From positions 222-64,221 of the forward strand of contig CANGXU010000004.1 of NCBI GenBank assembly GCA_947457885.1: a stretch of 64,000 nucleotides of DNA. Reading direction: 5' to 3'. Positions 28,799 to 64,000 of the stretch are shown piece after piece (positions within the stretch are counted from its first letter, which is position 1; every line of letters begins with the position of its first letter). The notes below the pieces were generated by a model that searched no databases, was not told the origin of the DNA, and saw only the letters and a list, made by a program, of their open reading frames with translations. This DNA is from Betaproteobacteria bacterium. GTDB lineage: Bacteria > Pseudomonadota > Gammaproteobacteria > Burkholderiales > CAIKXV01. Both the position numbers and the translations under genes were made by a program.

Positions 28799-29719
28799 AT
28801 GTCGATGTCCGACCGCGATGGAGTGATCTGGTTCGATGGGAAGCTGGTGCCCTGGCGCGAGGCGAACATCCATGTCCTTACCCACTCCCTGCACTACGGG
28901 CTTGCCGTCTTCGAAGGTATCCGCGCCTACAAGACTGACAAGGGCACGGCGATCTTCCGACTGCGCGAGCACATGGAGCGGCTGGCCAACTCGGCCCATA
29001 TCTACCAGATGCAGCTCCCCTACGACCGGGAGCAGCTCGCCGAGGCTTGCCGCGAGGTCGTGCGCGAGAACAAGCTCGAATCGTGCTACGTGCGTCCGAT
29101 CGCCTTCTACGGCTCCGAGAAGATGGGCGTGTCGCCGAAGGGTGCCAGCGTGCATGTCGCGATCGCCGCCTGGCCTTGGGGCGCTTATCTCGGGCCCGAG
29201 GGCCTCGAGAAAGGTATCCGCGTCAAGACCTCGTCTTTCGCGCGGCACCATGTGAACGTGACGATGGCGCGCGCGAAGTTCGCCGCGACCTACGCGAACT
29301 CCATCCTTGCCAATCTCGAGGCGACGGCAGACGGCTACGACGAGGCCATGCTGCTCGACGTGGATGGCTTCGTCGCCGAAGGCTCGGGCGAGAACGTATT
29401 CATAGTGAAGAACGGCAAGCTGTACGAACCCGAACTCACGTCGGCCCTCATCGGCATCACCCGCGATGCCGTGATCCAGCTCGCAGGCGAACTCGGCATT
29501 CCGGTCATTTCAAAGCGCCTCACCCGCGACGATGTCTACATCGCCGACGAAGCGTTCTTCACCGGCACCGCCGCCGAGGTCACGCCGATCCGCGAGCTCG
29601 ACAACCGGCGCATCGGCAGCGGTTCCCGAGGCCCGATCACCGAGAAGATCCAGTCTCTGTACTTCGACTGCGTGCACGGACGGGTCCCGCGCCGCCTCGA
29701 GTGGCTGACCCCGGTCTGA
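28799..29719 (+). CDS. ilvE: Branched-chain amino acid aminotransferase
   Basis: 'MSMSDRDGVIW', 'HSLHYG', 'FEGIRAY', 'EGSGEN', 'GITR', 'GTAAEVTP'. Confidence 0.97.
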   Translation: MSMSDRDGVIWFDGKLVPWREANIHVLTHSLHYGLAVFEGIRAYKTDKGTAIFRLREHMERLANSAHIYQMQLPYDREQLAEACREVVRENKLESCYVRPIAFYGSEKMGVSPKGASVHVAIAAWPWGAYLGPEGLEKGIRVKTSSFARHHVNVTMARAKFAATYANSILANLEATADGYDEAMLLDVDGFVAEGSGENVFIVKNGKLYEPELTSALIGITRDAVIQLAGELGIPVISKRLTRDDVYIADEAFFTGTAAEVTPIRELDNRRIGSGSRGPITEKIQSLYFDCVHGRVPRRLEWLTPV

Positions 29720-40802: not shown

Positions 40803-41894
40803 TTGCACCTGGAACTCCTGATTCCTGACCTGTCCTGGCCAGGCAGTGACGCCGCCCCGACGATGCAAGGGGCGGTCGCACCGACGCTCGCCCGCTGGCT
40901 GTCGCGATCGACGCGCCAGCCGGCCATCGGCGGCTCGGCAGACGACTGGCTCTGGCGGCGATTCACTGCGCCCGCAGCTGACGACGGTCAGGCTGGCTCC
41001 CCGGACGGCCCGGCCGAGCCGAGTGCTCGGCCGATCGCGCCGGTAACGCTCGCCCTCGACGGTCACGCGCCTGGCGAACGCTGGTGGATACGCGCGGATC
41101 CGGTGCACTTCATCGTCGGACGCACAGGCCTGCGCCTGGCGCCGCCCGCATACCTGCAGTTGCGCCCCGAGGAAGCGGAGGCTCTGGCCGGTTCCGTACG
41201 CGCGCACTTCCCGGCACTGACCCCGGATTTCCTGGCACCAGGCCCGGCGCGCTGGTACCTGGGCGCGGACCGCCCGTTCGAGCTGGACACGACCGCGCCG
41301 GCCGATGCCATCGGCGACGACGTCGACCGAAACCTGCCGCGCGGCCCTGGCCGCAAACGGTGGCTCGGCTTCGTAAACGAGGTGCAGATGCTCTGGTTCG
41401 AACATCCGGTGAACCGAGCGCGTGAACAGCGGGGCGAGCCGACAGCCTCCGGACTCTGGCTGCACGGCCCTGGCCGCATGCCGGCTCCGGGTCTGCCGGG
41501 CTGCACCGGGGCGGCTGGCGGTGGCGAACCCCTGGCCGGGCTGGCCGCCCTCGCCGGCTGCCGATGGATCGACACCGGCGCCGGCGTGCAGAATTGGCTC
41601 GAACAGGCCGGCGATGGCCACTGGCTGCTCAGCCTCGATGCGCTGACAGCGCACCGCCAGGCGGGCGACCCCTCCGGATGGCGTACCGCCCTGGACCGGC
41701 TCGACGCAGCGTGGCTGACCCCGATCGATGCGGCTCTCCAGAGTGGTCGCATTGCCGGCATCGACCTGCGCTGGCCGTCCCGGGACGGGCTTTCGGCCGC
41801 GCGCGTCGTGCCGGCGGATCGCCTCCGCTTCTGGCGCCGGCAGCGCCCCCTTGCAGCCTTGCTTGCCGATCCGCACGGCCGATCCAATGCCTGA
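40803..41894 (+). CDS. Conserved hypothetical protein (phosphoglycerate-mutase-like family found upstream of recJ)
   Basis: 'ADPVH', 'NEVQMLWFEHPVNRAREQRG...LWLHG', C-terminal 'RFWRR'; overlaps the recJ start. Confidence 0.75.
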   Translation: MHLELLIPDLSWPGSDAAPTMQGAVAPTLARWLSRSTRQPAIGGSADDWLWRRFTAPAADDGQAGSPDGPAEPSARPIAPVTLALDGHAPGERWWIRADPVHFIVGRTGLRLAPPAYLQLRPEEAEALAGSVRAHFPALTPDFLAPGPARWYLGADRPFELDTTAPADAIGDDVDRNLPRGPGRKRWLGFVNEVQMLWFEHPVNRAREQRGEPTASGLWLHGPGRMPAPGLPGCTGAAGGGEPLAGLAALAGCRWIDTGAGVQNWLEQAGDGHWLLSLDALTAHRQAGDPSGWRTALDRLDAAWLTPIDAALQSGRIAGIDLRWPSRDGLSAARVVPADRLRFWRRQRPLAALLADPHGRSNA

Positions 41895-60396: not shown

Positions 60397-61472
60397 GCGA
60401 TCCCGAAGGCGAACAGCCCGAGCGAACCGAAGGCCGGGCCAAGCGCACCGGCAGGCCCCGCAAACAGCGCAGTACAGGCCAGCGTGTGGGCTACGTAGAA
60501 CGACATGGTCATGCGACCGAGAGGCGCGAAGGTCGCCAGGCGGTGCGCCCTCCCCGCGTGCCACGCGCGCGCCAGCGCGCATACGGCACCCGCAGCGAGC
60601 AGCGGCCCGGTGAACTGGGTCACGAAGTCGATGACCGACGTTTCGCCGTCGGGATACAGGGCAACCCGCCAGGCGGCCAGTGCGACGTTGAGCACGAGCC
60701 CCGCGGGCAGCAGCACGGCAGCGCCGATCGACCACAGGCGCGCACCGTAGCGCGCGCGCTCCAGCACGCGCAGCCGGCCGGCAATCGTGCCGGCGATGCC
60801 GAGCGAGATCATCATCGGCAGTTGCCATGGCAGCTGGTAGAAGTACGACGCATAACCGATCCGGTTGAGCTCGAACACCTCGGGCCAGCTGCCCGCGTGA
60901 GTCAGCCAGTGCACGGTGACCGGCGATTGCGCGGGGGCGGGGAATGCCAGCATCACGGCCAGCGTCGTGCCACCCACCGCCAGCCAGAGCCCCCCCCATG
61001 CTGCGCCAAGCAGGCACAACCGCCGCAGCCGGCGCCGCGGCGCGGCCAGCAGCAGCAGTCCGAGCACGGCCAGCCAGGACAGGATGTCTCCGTAGTAGAT
61101 GAACAGGCCGTGCAGGACGCCGATCACGCCCTGGCGCATCATCTGGCTGCGCCTGGAAGCGACAACGTCGGCGTCCAGCCTGCGCCCTTGGCGCCGCGTG
61201 CGCATCGCCCAGCCATAACCGACGAGGAACATCAGGAGCGGGTAGCTCTTGGCCTGGAACAGCGCAACGCAGATGGCCTGGATCAGCAGCGCAAGCGTCG
61301 AATCCGCCGGGTCGACCACGCCGACGGGCGAACTGAACACGTGCGGGAACGACATCGTGTTCACGACCAGTACGCCGCACAGCGCCAGGCCTCGGATACC
61401 GTCGATCAGCGCATTGCGTCGGGCCGAGCCTGTCACCGGCAGTGGACTGGCAGGACCCGCCAGCGAGGGCAT
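60267..61472 (-). CDS. DUF418 (YeiB-like) membrane protein
   Basis: 'IDGIRGLALCGVLVVN', 'KSYPLLMFLVGYG', 'GDIL', 'GRMTMSFYVAH', 'GPLEAL'. Confidence 0.88.
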   Translation of the reverse strand: MPSLAGPASPLPVTGSARRNALIDGIRGLALCGVLVVNTMSFPHVFSSPVGVVDPADSTLALLIQAICVALFQAKSYPLLMFLVGYGWAMRTRRQGRRLDADVVASRRSQMMRQGVIGVLHGLFIYYGDILSWLAVLGLLLLAAPRRRLRRLCLLGAAWGGLWLAVGGTTLAVMLAFPAPAQSPVTVHWLTHAGSWPEVFELNRIGYASYFYQLPWQLPMMISLGIAGTIAGRLRVLERARYGARLWSIGAAVLLPAGLVLNVALAAWRVALYPDGETSVIDFVTQFTGPLLAAGAVCALARAWHAGRAHRLATFAPLGRMTMSFYVAHTLACTALFAGPAGALGPAFGSLGLFAFGIAYWGAAVLLAPAWIARAGPGPLEALVRGGGDERSRASRRNTIT

Positions 61473-62473
61473 CAGGGTGCCGCGGTCGAACCAGGCCGCG
61501 CCGCGCGGATCTCGCGCGCGAGTTCGAACACCGCCATCGCGTAGTGGATCGCGCGGTTGTAGCGGGTGATCACGAAGAAGTTGTCGAACCCGAGCCAGTA
61601 CTCGGTGCCCTCCTTCACCACCAGCGGGAACACCATCGCGGGCAGCGCTGCGTCGACCTCGGATACCGGCACGAAACCCATGTCGCGCAATGCGCCCACC
61701 GTGGTGTGCGGCCGGATGCCGAGCTTCGCCTGAGCCTCGGCCAGATCGACGGGTGCGGAAACGCGCACGGCGACCGGACCACCGGTGACCCAGCCGAACA
61801 CCCGGTAATAGTTCGCGACGCTGCCGATCGCATCCGGCGCGCTGCGAAAGAGGTCGATGCGGCCATCGCCGTCGAAGTCCACCGCATACTTGCGGTAACT
61901 CGTCGGCATGAACTGCGGAATACCCATCGCCCCGGCAAACGATCCGCGGGGCTGCGCCGGATCGACCGCCAGTTCGCGGCTGAGCAGCAGGAACTGCTCG
62001 AGTTCGCCGCGGAAGAAAGCGGCGCGCTTGGGGAAGTCGAAGGCCAGGGTCGCGAGCGTGTCGAGCACCGGATGCGAGCCCATCATCTTTCCGAACAACG
62101 TCTCTGCCGCGATCGTCGCGACCACGAGTTCGGGCGGCACACCGAACTGCGCGCGCGCGCGCTCCAGCACTGCCGCGTTGTCCTGCCAGAAGCGGACTCC
62201 GCCGGCGATCCGCGGGCGGTTGACGAACGACGGGCGGTACTCGAACCAGGGGCGCGGCGTGTACTGCGACTGCATGGCTCCGAGCACCTGGTTCTGCACG
62301 CGCACCTGGGCGAACAGTGCGCGCAGTGCGTCGCGGTCGAACTGGTGGCGCGCGACCATCTCGTCGACGAATGCCTCGGCGTCGGCCGACAGCGCACGCG
62401 GCGCCGGTTGGGCCGCCAGTTTCCCCACCATCGCCGTCGAGGCGACCGCTGCAATCAACGTTCGGCGATTCAT
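61472..62473 (-). CDS. mltB: Lytic murein transglycosylase B (Slt35/MltB family)
   Basis: Catalytic 'AETLFG', 'GSFAGAMGIPQFMPTSY', EF-hand 'DFDGDGRIDL', 'ITRYN'. Confidence 0.93.
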   Translation of the reverse strand: MNRRTLIAAVASTAMVGKLAAQPAPRALSADAEAFVDEMVARHQFDRDALRALFAQVRVQNQVLGAMQSQYTPRPWFEYRPSFVNRPRIAGGVRFWQDNAAVLERARAQFGVPPELVVATIAAETLFGKMMGSHPVLDTLATLAFDFPKRAAFFRGELEQFLLLSRELAVDPAQPRGSFAGAMGIPQFMPTSYRKYAVDFDGDGRIDLFRSAPDAIGSVANYYRVFGWVTGGPVAVRVSAPVDLAEAQAKLGIRPHTTVGALRDMGFVPVSEVDAALPAMVFPLVVKEGTEYWLGFDNFFVITRYNRAIHYAMAVFELAREIRAARPGSTAAP

Positions 62474-63135
62474 CCGTACCTGCGTATCAGCCCCTTGACC
62501 ACCCCGCGGATCGTAACCTGCGCAGGGTCGAATACCAATGGCTGCATCGATGAATTTGCCGGATGCAGGACGACGCGGCCAGGCCGCTGCTCGATCCGCT
62601 TCAGGGTCGCTGCCTCGCCATCGATGAGCGCCACCACGATCTCGCCATTGCGTGCCGAGGAACGGTGCTCGATCACCACCACGTCGCCATCTAGGATGCC
62701 TTCGTCGATCATCGAATCGCCACGCACCGTGAGCGCATAGTGGTCGACGCGGCCGGCCCAGCCCGCGCCCACTTCGATCTCGGCATCTTCGTCGAGCGCA
62801 TCGATCGGCTGGCCGGCCGCAACCCGACCGAGCAGCGGCAGCGTCCGCCCTTGTGCGCGCTCAGGAGACGCCGATCCGGCGCGACGGGACGTCTGTCGCG
62901 GAGGCGACAACACGATGCCGCGCTGCCTGCCGTTCATCGGCTCGACCAGCCCTGCCTCGACCAGCGCCTGTACATGCTTGTGCAGCGATCCGCGCGAACT
63001 CAGGCCGAGCGCCGCGCAGACCTCGTCGAGCGTCGGCGGATGATCCAGGGCCGGAAGCGTGTCGCGCAGCCATGCCAGGATCTGTGCCTGCCGGCGTGTC
63101 AGTGAAGGCGGCGCTTTGGGCATCGGGGCCTGCAT
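62470..63135 (-). CDS. lexA: LexA repressor (S24 autopeptidase)
   Basis: wHTH 'LTRRQAQIL...PPTLDEVCAALGLSSRGSLHKHVQALVEAG'; cleavage site 'VAAG'; Ser in 'GDSM'; Lys in 'TLKR'. Start at 63135 or 63123. Confidence 0.93.
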   Translation of the reverse strand: MQAPMPKAPPSLTRRQAQILAWLRDTLPALDHPPTLDEVCAALGLSSRGSLHKHVQALVEAGLVEPMNGRQRGIVLSPPRQTSRRAGSASPERAQGRTLPLLGRVAAGQPIDALDEDAEIEVGAGWAGRVDHYALTVRGDSMIDEGILDGDVVVIEHRSSARNGEIVVALIDGEAATLKRIEQRPGRVVLHPANSSMQPLVFDPAQVTIRGVVKGLIRRYG

Positions 63136-63178
63136 GCTCGTTGATCGGTCGGGGCGCGGCTGGAGGTCAGGGCGGAGG

Positions 63179-63231
63179 TGGACGTCGACCGCGCATATCC
63201 CATAGTATCGCAGGGAGAACGAATGGAGAAC
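63179..63231. promoter_or_regulatory. Overlapping divergent promoters with a GAAC-N7-GAAC putative LexA operator
   Basis: Plus strand: TGGACG-N18-TAGTAT (63179-63208). Minus strand: TTCTCC-N17-TACTAT. Direct repeat GAGAAC-gaatg-GAGAAC at 63215-63231. Confidence 0.7.
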
Positions 63232-63243
63232 AGCGTGCCCGAC

Positions 63244-64000
63244 ATGACGATTCCCGCCCGGGCGCACGGCCCCGACACCCCGGGGTCGGTGCGCGCGCTA
63301 CGCCGCCGCTCGAAGGCGGACCACCGAACCGAGGCGGCGCCGCCCGCCCTGGCACTCGAGCCGCTGCTGGCCCGGCTCGAGCGCCGCTATGGCGACCGCA
63401 TCACCGCGCACCGGGTCGCGCCAGCCCGGGCGGCGAAGTTCGCACCGTTCCCGGACGACCTCGACCCGGCACTGCGCCGGGCCCTGGGCGTACGCGGCAT
63501 CGAATCGCTGTACACGCACCAGCGTGCGGCCTGGGACAGCGTTCGCGCCGGCGCCCACACGGTGGTCGTCACCCCGACGGCATCGGGCAAGACGCTCTGC
63601 TACAACCTGCCGGTGCTGCAGGCCGTGCGGGAAACCGGCGCGAAAGCCCTCTACCTGTTCCCGACCAAGGCGCTGGCCCAGGACCAGGTGGCAGAGTTGC
63701 TGGCCCTCAACGAAGCGGGCGAACTGGGCGTACGCGCATTCACCTTCGATGGCGACACACCCGGCGATGCTCGCCAGGCGATCCGCACCCGCGGCGACAT
63801 CGTGGTGTCGAACCCCGACATGCTGCACCAGGCCATCCTGCCGCACCACACGAAGTGGGCACAGCTGTTCGAGAACCTGAAGTACGTGGTGATCGACGAG
63901 ATGCACAGCTACCGCGGCGTGTTCGGCTCGCATGTCGCGAACGTGATGCGCAGGCTTCGGCGCATCTGCCGGTTCCACGGATCCGACCCGGTGTTCATCC
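63244..64000 (+). CDS. DEAD/DEAH-box helicase, MrfA/YprA (Hrq1/SftH-like) family; truncated by the window end
   Basis: Hand translation from ATG 63244: 'GIESLYTHQ', Walker A 'TPTASGKTLCYNLPV', 'YLFPTKALAQDQ', 'FDGDTP', 'NPDMLHQAILPHHTKW', 'VIDEMHSYRGVFGSHVANVMRRL'. Confidence 0.92.
   Translation, partial: MTIPARAHGPDTPGSVRALRRRSKADHRTEAAPPALALEPLLARLERRYGDRITAHRVAPARAAKFAPFPDDLDPALRRALGVRGIESLYTHQRAAWDSVRAGAHTVVVTPTASGKTLCYNLPVLQAVRETGAKALYLFPTKALAQDQVAELLALNEAGELGVRAFTFDGDTPGDARQAIRTRGDIVVSNPDMLHQAILPHHTKWAQLFENLKYVVIDEMHSYRGVFGSHVANVMRRLRRICRFHGSDPVFI

Follow-up and report, generated by a model that had tools for sequence, protein, structure and literature searches.

LexA is a textbook master regulator whose binding motif has changed many times, and the intermediate stages of such changes are rarely caught. 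A 64,000-nucleotide stretch from the assembly of a Betaproteobacteria bacterium (GCA_947457885.1, contig CANGXU010000004.1; hereafter the window, G000:C4:222-64221) carries a lexA gene divergent from a helicase gene of the MrfA/YprA type, with a direct repeat between the two. This arrangement raises the question of whether such a LexA governs the SOS response of its host as a whole or a circuit of its own. We consider the second answer probable: our sequence comparisons point to a dedicated regulon in which a non-canonical paralogue, here named LexA2, would control the helicase-exonuclease pair mrfA-mrfB (mrfAB) and its own lexA2-mltB genes from a single direct-repeat operator.

The lexA2 gene lies on the minus strand at 62470-63135 and encodes a protein of 221 aa, or of 217 aa if the alternative start at 63123 is used. 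Both LexA domains are recognized in Pfam (LexA_DNA_bind, PF01726, 51 bits with a cut-off of 23.7; Peptidase_S24, PF00717, 98.1 bits) and the protein passes the TIGR00498 lexA equivalog model with 161.2 bits (cut-off 110.95). In an alignment of 15 sequences the cleavage site A106-A107-G108, S141 (in GDSM) and K179 (in TLKR) are all invariant, and so is the recognition helix, LGLxSRGSLHK, across the clade to which LexA2 belongs.

A direct repeat between lexA2 and mrfA

Two copies of GAGAAC, at 63215-63220 and 63226-63231, form the plus-strand direct repeat GAGAAC-N5-GAGAAC (63215-63231), within which GAAC-N7-GAAC spans 63217-63231. The first-pass annotation of this DNA had reported this repeat between lexA and the helicase, and had reported no canonical SOS box (CTGT-N8-ACAG) there; both statements were borne out, the second because a pattern search found no CTGT-N8-ACAG anywhere on the contig that holds the window. 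The exact repeat occurs once in the 4.03-Mb assembly, and this single occurrence, together with its conservation, marks it as the putative LexA2 operator. Its half-sites are spaced by 11 bp, one helical turn, and would therefore lie on the same face of the helix. The only other GAAC-N7-GAAC in the window, GAACATCCGGTGAAC, is found at 41400-41414.

The length of the gap between lexA2 and the helicase varies with the choice of start codon. It is 87 nt (63136-63222) with a helicase start at 63223 and 109 nt with a start at ATG 63245, so the 108 bp given earlier was about right. We find that mrfA probably starts at GTG 63235, or alternatively at ATG 63223, because a start-capable [AGT]TG (codon 5, GTG 63235 here) is kept 6 nt after the second GGAGAAC in the nine closest loci of the genus; the second half-site would then double as the ribosome-binding site.

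Our genus sample comprised this assembly and 14 other genomes, with 13 lexA2 loci that were anchored on the motif. All 12 bases of the two GAGAAC copies are invariant in the 13 loci, including the AAC that extends beyond GGAG, and the stretch between lexA2 and the repeat is variable in sequence, ranges from ~80 to >500 nt and cannot be aligned. The conservation of the repeat upstream of orthologous lexA/helicase pairs, whose absence would have told against the earlier reading, thus holds in every genus genome with a lexA2 locus (13/13). lexA2 and the helicase are divergent in 12 of these loci, and the thirteenth ends at a contig edge. The helicase has a more downstream start in L010, L011 and L013, the first of which has also lost the ATG within the spacer. 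All three still keep the repeat, which argues for an element of the DNA itself over a coding constraint. Furthermore, a genus-wide pattern search found the site in 13 of the 15 genomes, the two without it being the same two that have no lexA2 match.

Promoter-like hexamers accompany the repeat across the genus. A -10-like hexamer stands 6-8 nt upstream of it (TAGTAT in 11 of the 13 loci, TACTAT and TAGGAT in one each), and a -35-like hexamer lies 17-18 nt upstream of the -10 (TGGACG in eight of the nine closest loci and TAGACG in the ninth, with TTG-type hexamers in the remaining four). In the window the first of these is ATAGTAT at 63202-63208, a putative -10 on both strands, read as TAGTAT on the plus strand (63203-63208) and as TACTAT on the minus strand (63202-63207); the overlapping -10 hexamers described in the first-pass annotation are therefore present where it had placed them. 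The second is TGGACG at 63179-63184 on the plus strand, the putative mrfA -35, with an 18-nt spacer to the -10. Their conservation suggests that these hexamers function as promoter elements.

The LexA2 clade and its motif

A protein search with LexA2 returned more than 100 LexA sequences at 56-91% identity, some of them labelled Rhodocyclaceae, Betaproteobacteria, Gammaproteobacteria or Sedimenticola metagenome-assembled genomes (MAGs), and 80 loci came from a scan in which each species was represented by a single genome. The phylogeny, which the first-pass annotation had proposed, was built from 114 LexA rows after high-scoring segment pairs shorter than 150 aa and six identical duplicates had been dropped. 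The row L029 derives from a genome that is marked as unpublished (G039), and no claim made here depends on that row alone. LexA2 falls into a separate clade of 39 rows with a Shimodaira-Hasegawa-like approximate likelihood ratio (SH-aLRT) support of 99, made up of the 13 genus rows and 26 others from Sedimenticola, Thiodiazotropha, Ectothiorhodospiraceae, Thiogranum, Methylococcaceae, Rhodanobacteraceae/Lysobacterales and one Betaproteobacteria MAG. The canonical clade, which contains a 202-aa LexA of the same genus (LexA1), has 18 rows and a support of 100 and excludes LexA2, whose locus likewise has no CTGT-N8-ACAG. The other groups are alphaproteobacterial (3 rows, support 95), Acidobacteria-like (34 rows, 85), Patescibacteria-like (15 rows, 99) and a small sister group (4 rows, 96).

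The direct repeat follows this clade. Counting GTTC-N7-GTTC on either strand within 300 nt upstream of lexA, we found it in 11 of the 13 LexA2 loci of the genus, the other two having the motif further upstream, in 21 of 25 other LexA2 loci, in all four loci of the small sister clade and in all three alphaproteobacterial rows. The same count gave none in 17 canonical lexA loci and none in 15 Patescibacteria-like loci. Of 16 inspected loci, nine have an exact CTGT-N8-ACAG box; the set consisted of L030 and of 15 rows of the canonical clade that belong to the same order or to G043. L030 (G040:C39) is a very divergent LexA (end branch 3.97) in a genome of the same order; it lies outside the LexA2 clade and has GAACGTACGTTC upstream instead, which we take to be the GAAC-N4-GTTC type of Sideroxydans-like Betaproteobacteria.

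The LexA2 helix pattern S-[RK]-x-x-x-H-[KR] resembles that of alphaproteobacterial LexA, as the first-pass annotation had suggested for the recognition helix. The resemblance does not extend to the whole DNA-binding domain, which is 31% identical to the alphaproteobacterial rows vs 37-41% to canonical rows, nor to the tree, where LexA2 stands outside the Alphaproteobacteria. The C-terminal domain is 46-47% identical to the alphaproteobacterial rows. The three alphaproteobacterial rows branch apart from the LexA2 clade and support at the deep nodes is weak (75-87), so the tree shows no sister relation between the two. Membership of LexA2 in the alphaproteobacterial lineage was accordingly considered and rejected on the tree and the identities.

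The surroundings of the motif vary between lineages. In many gammaproteobacterial lexA-mrfA spacers there are two inverted copies of the repeat, TAGAATAGAGAAC-N5-GAGAAC, each of which follows directly after a TAGAAT-like -10 of one of the divergent genes. The mrfA-mrfB pair is divergent beside lexA2 in 10 of the 24 non-genus loci from the species scan and lies ~1.4 kb away in one more; the Methylococcaceae loci and most Sedimenticola LexA2 loci have no mrfA-mrfB neighbour. Methylobacter sp. YRD-M1 has a LexA2-type gene (52% identity) on a plasmid of 61.8 kb (NZ_CP091426.1), where umuD-umuC is its divergent neighbour and the spacer between them contains GTTCTC-N5-GTTCT (L184:6917-6932). This plasmid gene neighbours a Tn3-family transposase. 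The Thiodiazotropha genome G044 encodes two LexA proteins, one of the LexA2 clade and one of the sister clade, with paired GTTCTC-N5-GTTCT boxes at both (L113/L131/L134, C60:8746-8990), and a canonical LexA gave no hit in that genome.

LexA2 beside a canonical LexA1

Ten of the 14 genus relatives encode two LexA proteins, an orthologue of LexA2 (57-88% identity) and the 202-aa LexA1 (~38-41%). Two have the LexA2 type only, and two have the 202-aa protein only, in genomes that are 84% and 67% complete. The suggestion in the first-pass annotation that the locus is a dedicated second regulon fits this finding, because a canonical LexA accompanies LexA2 in ten of the 14 relatives. In two near-complete genomes of the genus, lexA1 is located ~155 nt upstream of recA on the same strand (G006:C2:59908-61426 and G014:C24:8588-10106).

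The two paralogues have different boxes. A palindrome ending at the ATG precedes the 202-aa lexA1 in all four loci read; its core is CCGT-N8-ACGG in three of them (L025, L148 and L149), and L028 has two right-half changes (CGGG). In the present assembly the sole CCGT-type box stands directly before imuA (NF033429, 185.6 bits, cut-off 150), at a contig end. This LexA1-type box reads TACCGTATAAA..TACGGTA (contig C1:100781-100800, L185:181-200), and LexA1 of the genus seems to use the CCGT form instead of CTGT-N8-ACAG. The helix of LexA1 is SPASAED, and relatives in the order that have SANAAE-type helices keep CTGT-N8-ACAG. From the lexA1 genes of the relatives and the box before imuA we conclude that this organism probably has a canonical LexA1 regulon as well, and lexA2 is therefore the best name for the gene in the window.

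Searches for further sites covered the genus and four LexA2-bearing genomes of other classes. In G042, where the LexA2-type protein is the only LexA hit, both copies of recA are preceded by TAGAAAAC-N6-AGAAC, a one-mismatch form of the motif. No classical SOS genes were found at the extra G042 sites, whose neighbours are small open reading frames (ORFs), a MotA/ExbB-like gene and a fasciclin-domain gene, and one extra site from this search of other classes falls within a coding region. G042 also has a second inverted GTTCT-N6-GTTCT pair 16 kb from lexA (G042:C13:116304-116355, L138:1501-1552), flanked by an ORF of 80 aa and by one of 55 aa that encodes a putative membrane protein and is followed by the MotA/ExbB-like gene; the genes at this pair may be further LexA2 targets. 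In the genus, an intergenic AGAACGGATCAAGAAC is common to G006 (L180:1501), G003 (L173:1501) and G002 (L162:1501), one of these genomes having no lexA2 match, and the site has no counterpart in this assembly.

Several observations weigh against a dedicated LexA2 regulon. By itself the repeat is not beyond chance in the window, where GAAC-N7-GAAC occurs twice vs 0.98 expected (29 of 100 shuffles reach two) and GAGAAC-N5-GAGAAC with at most one mismatch occurs once vs 0.19 expected (16 of 100 shuffles reach one); what makes it significant is its position and its conservation in relatives, not its rarity. A consensus scan of 62900-63500 called no promoters or terminators. It passed over TGGACG because of a match at only 8 of 12 positions, and the promoter positions are thus proposed from conservation only. 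Four of the 25 non-genus LexA2 loci (L035, L040, L049 and L119) have no exact motif, with degenerate copies in L035 and L040 and none in L049 and L119, and the regions upstream of recA in G041, G043 and G044 contain no LexA2 box. Within the genus, the motif is essentially confined to a single locus in each genome, so that there is no regulon-wide confirmation: beyond the lexA2-mrfA site, an AGAAC-N6-AGAAC search gave 1-6 hits per genome where controls gave 0-6, and the extra hits that we checked look coding or unconserved. The two remaining points, an overlap with translation signals and the single lexA of this assembly, each lead to a different explanation of the locus.

The second copy of the repeat (GGAG) coincides with the Shine-Dalgarno sequence of mrfA and the spacer between the copies holds an ATG, so conservation in the genus could be partly translational. 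On this account the tandem GGAG would be kept as a signal for translation or in the 5' untranslated region of mrfA, or the repeat would be the site of another regulator; indeed, the GGAG-containing second copy is 6 nt before the conserved [AGT]TG start and the first copy could serve ATG 63223. We regard this as very unlikely. At many loci the motif stands antisense upstream of the lexA -10, as GTTCTC-N5-GTTCT followed by TATAAT-like hexamers, and there it cannot be a ribosome-binding site. The motif also tracks the LexA2 clade and not the helicase, being present without mrfA in the Methylococcaceae loci and on the Methylobacter plasmid, and the invariance of the repeat extends to the AAC beyond GGAG.

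Returning to the dedicated regulon, only one lexA was found in this assembly, both by tblastn and with the Pfam LexA domain model, and a canonical lexA1 would have to be present but unassembled. The check for a second lexA proposed earlier was thus positive for ten of the 14 relatives and negative for the assembly itself. One could instead suppose that canonical LexA was lost and that LexA2 is the sole and primary SOS repressor of the organism, as the single gene here and the state of G042, with its LexA2-type protein as the only LexA hit and a near-consensus site at recA, might suggest. We think this unlikely. recA was not found in this assembly either, and since lexA1 and recA are adjacent in relatives, their joint absence indicates one unassembled lexA1-recA locus and not gene loss; the assembly is 89.9% complete and lies in 289 contigs. 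In addition, a LexA1-type palindrome still precedes imuA, and the exact LexA2 motif occurs just once.

The mrfAB cassette and the proposed circuit

The contig runs 5 kb beyond the window, which we used to complete mrfA and to find mrfB. The 5' part of mrfA, a superfamily 2 helicase gene of the YprA type with a DEAD/DEAH core, occupies 63223-64000 on the plus strand and the gene ends at the window-equivalent position 65820. mrfB follows on the same strand at 65817-67163 (window-equivalent), its GTG start overlapping the mrfA stop. MrfA has 865 aa and matches, all above cut-off, the Pfam domains DEAD (PF00270), Helicase_C (PF00271), WHD_HRQ1 (PF22982) and MZB (PF09369, formerly DUF1998); it also contains a DEMH motif and the cysteine cluster CACMHGCPAC. 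The match to Bacillus subtilis YprA (PDB 6znp) covers residues 60-710 with 758 bits (E 9.4e-227), and these comparisons identify the helicase as a true MrfA/YprA orthologue. MrfB contains RNase_H_2 (PF13482, 100.6 bits) and its only PDB sequence match is 8un9, 'Exonuclease MrfB' (E 4.8e-24); a C-terminal tetratricopeptide repeat region is only suggested, by a weak TPR_16 match of 20.5 bits that is below the cut-off of 32.7. Both features that the first-pass annotation had expected beyond 64000, a C-terminal DUF1998 in the helicase and a YprB/MrfB RNase-H-like gene, were thus recovered, as the MZB domain and as mrfB.

YprA-like helicases have been described as defence-associated (PMC13192584), and the pair might alternatively belong to that class of helicases as a module against phages, kept in check by a LexA-type repressor, and not be a repair pathway. 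Models in PADLOC do match the helicase core (BrxHI, E 1.8e-46; SngC, E 1e-42; also DruE, DrmA and DpdF). However, these matches are confined to that core, ~residues 79-443, in contrast to the 60-710 covered by B. subtilis MrfA/YprA at 758 bits. PADLOC gave no hit for the partner protein, whose full length matches MrfB, an exonuclease of solved structure, and the pair is a conserved chromosomal neighbour across the genus, where the helicase is 77-97% identical. A defence role appears highly improbable on these grounds.

In the circuit that we propose for the dedicated LexA2 regulon, a LexA2 dimer would bind the repeat at 63215-63231 instead of the palindromic SOS box of canonical LexA. On the mrfA-mrfB side, the operator begins 6 nt past TAGTAT and would cover the transcription start and the ribosome-binding site, and on the lexA2-mltB side the same operator would cover the -35/spacer region upstream of TACTAT. 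Because one operator overlaps both promoters, a single bound repressor could shut both divergent promoters together; autoregulation of lexA2 follows, in this scheme, from the geometry of the locus. Upon DNA damage, RecA filaments would induce self-cleavage of LexA2, whose Ala-Gly site and Ser/Lys dyad are intact, and this would relieve both operons, so that the helicase MrfA and the 3'-5' exonuclease MrfB could be made and together excise bulky adducts. The general SOS genes, lexA1-recA and imuA, would remain under LexA1 and its own box.

Parts of this scheme are familiar from other systems. Pseudomonas putida and Xanthomonas have second LexA paralogues, also called LexA2, that recognize a separate box and govern a small regulon of their own, and the locus described here is like them in having an extra lexA with a diverged motif that would control itself and an adjacent cassette beside the main SOS response. 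It differs from them in that the cassette is mrfA-mrfB plus mltB and not imuA-imuB-dnaE2, and in that the motif is a direct repeat; imuA in this genus carries a LexA1-type box. Sanchez-Alberola and colleagues are said to have described, in 2015, a non-canonical LexA in Sideroxydans and Gallionella that reportedly recognizes a palindromic GAAC-N4-GTTC and is the sole SOS regulator. The two cases share a non-standard LexA in Betaproteobacteria, GAAC-type half-sites and signs of lateral spread, whereas the motif there would be palindromic and the protein the sole regulator, and here we see a direct repeat and a second LexA. One order holds three types of LexA and operator: the canonical palindrome, present as a CCGT variant in this genus, a GAAC-N4-GTTC type and the direct-repeat type described here.

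With alphaproteobacterial LexA the present system shares the GAAC-N7-GAAC core, its spacing and direct-repeat geometry, a LexA that is here predicted to be self-cleaving and the helix pattern S-[KR]-x-x-x-H-[KR]. It differs in forming a separate clade, in its longer half-sites (GAGAAC) and in its Beta- and Gammaproteobacteria hosts, and in contrast to the alphaproteobacterial master SOS regulator it appears as a second LexA tied to mrfAB. The cassette resembles B. subtilis MrfA/MrfB, which repairs mitomycin C damage, in its domains (DEAD, Helicase_C, winged helix and MZB), in the order of mrfA followed by mrfB, and in the DEDDh-type RNase_H_2 core and probable C-terminal helical repeat region of MrfB. 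Unlike the B. subtilis system it has a proteobacterial host and is physically linked to a dedicated LexA and operator, and its role in adduct repair there is putative.

In the literature, GTTC-N7-GTTC is established as the direct-repeat box of Alphaproteobacteria (PMC8565304, PMC3323433), lateral acquisition of an alphaproteobacterial-type LexA by Acidobacterium capsulatum is cited (PMC3323433 and PMC7739468, through the title of Mazon et al. 2006), direct-repeat LexA motifs are held to have arisen independently more than once (PMC7739468), and additional copies of lexA whose motifs have diverged are known as well (PMC8565304). A term search found neither 'LexA' nor 'SOS' in the MrfA/MrfB structure papers PMC7797055 and PMC11194089. 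Our full-text literature search did not find the LexA2 clade, GAGAAC-N5-GAGAAC in Beta- or Gammaproteobacteria, or a link between LexA and mrfAB, and leaves a prior mention possible.

If LexA2 does act as we propose, the MrfAB excision pathway would be linked to a dedicated damage-sensing repressor, which predicts that MrfAB is inducible in proteobacteria. A genus with two LexA types and separate targets would also serve as a test system for the insulation of paralogues and the handover of regulons. Two cultured strains, Methylotuvimicrobium sp. KM1 and Methylobacter sp. YRD-M1, carry the LexA2 type, and these predictions are therefore testable. We further raise, more tentatively and as a possibility that we hold to be less than even, that LexA2, its operator and a repair cassette make up a portable, self-regulating unit spread by lateral transfer among Gamma- and Betaproteobacteria, with mrfAB as the cassette in many lineages and umuDC on the Methylobacter plasmid. 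Such a unit might be a private circuit beside canonical LexA in some hosts, and in others might have displaced it and started to recapture core SOS genes such as recA. If true, this would offer a living series of stages in the replacement of a master regulator, as well as the first evidence for a LexA-dependent induction of MrfAB by DNA damage.

Downstream of lexA2, on the minus strand at 61472-62473, lies an mltB-like gene for a lytic murein transglycosylase (Pfam SLT_2, E 8.9e-93; MltB model TIGR02282, 351.9 bits vs a cut-off of 281.4). Its ATG overlaps the lexA2 stop (ATGA), and the two genes are therefore probably co-transcribed; mltB is directly downstream of lexA2 in all 13 genus loci. 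A translationally coupled cell-wall enzyme in a LexA-type operon is unexpected. Elsewhere in this assembly, contig C12 contains at ~28917-28950 a tandem AGAAC run of about six copies, one of them AGAAT, in GC-rich surroundings.

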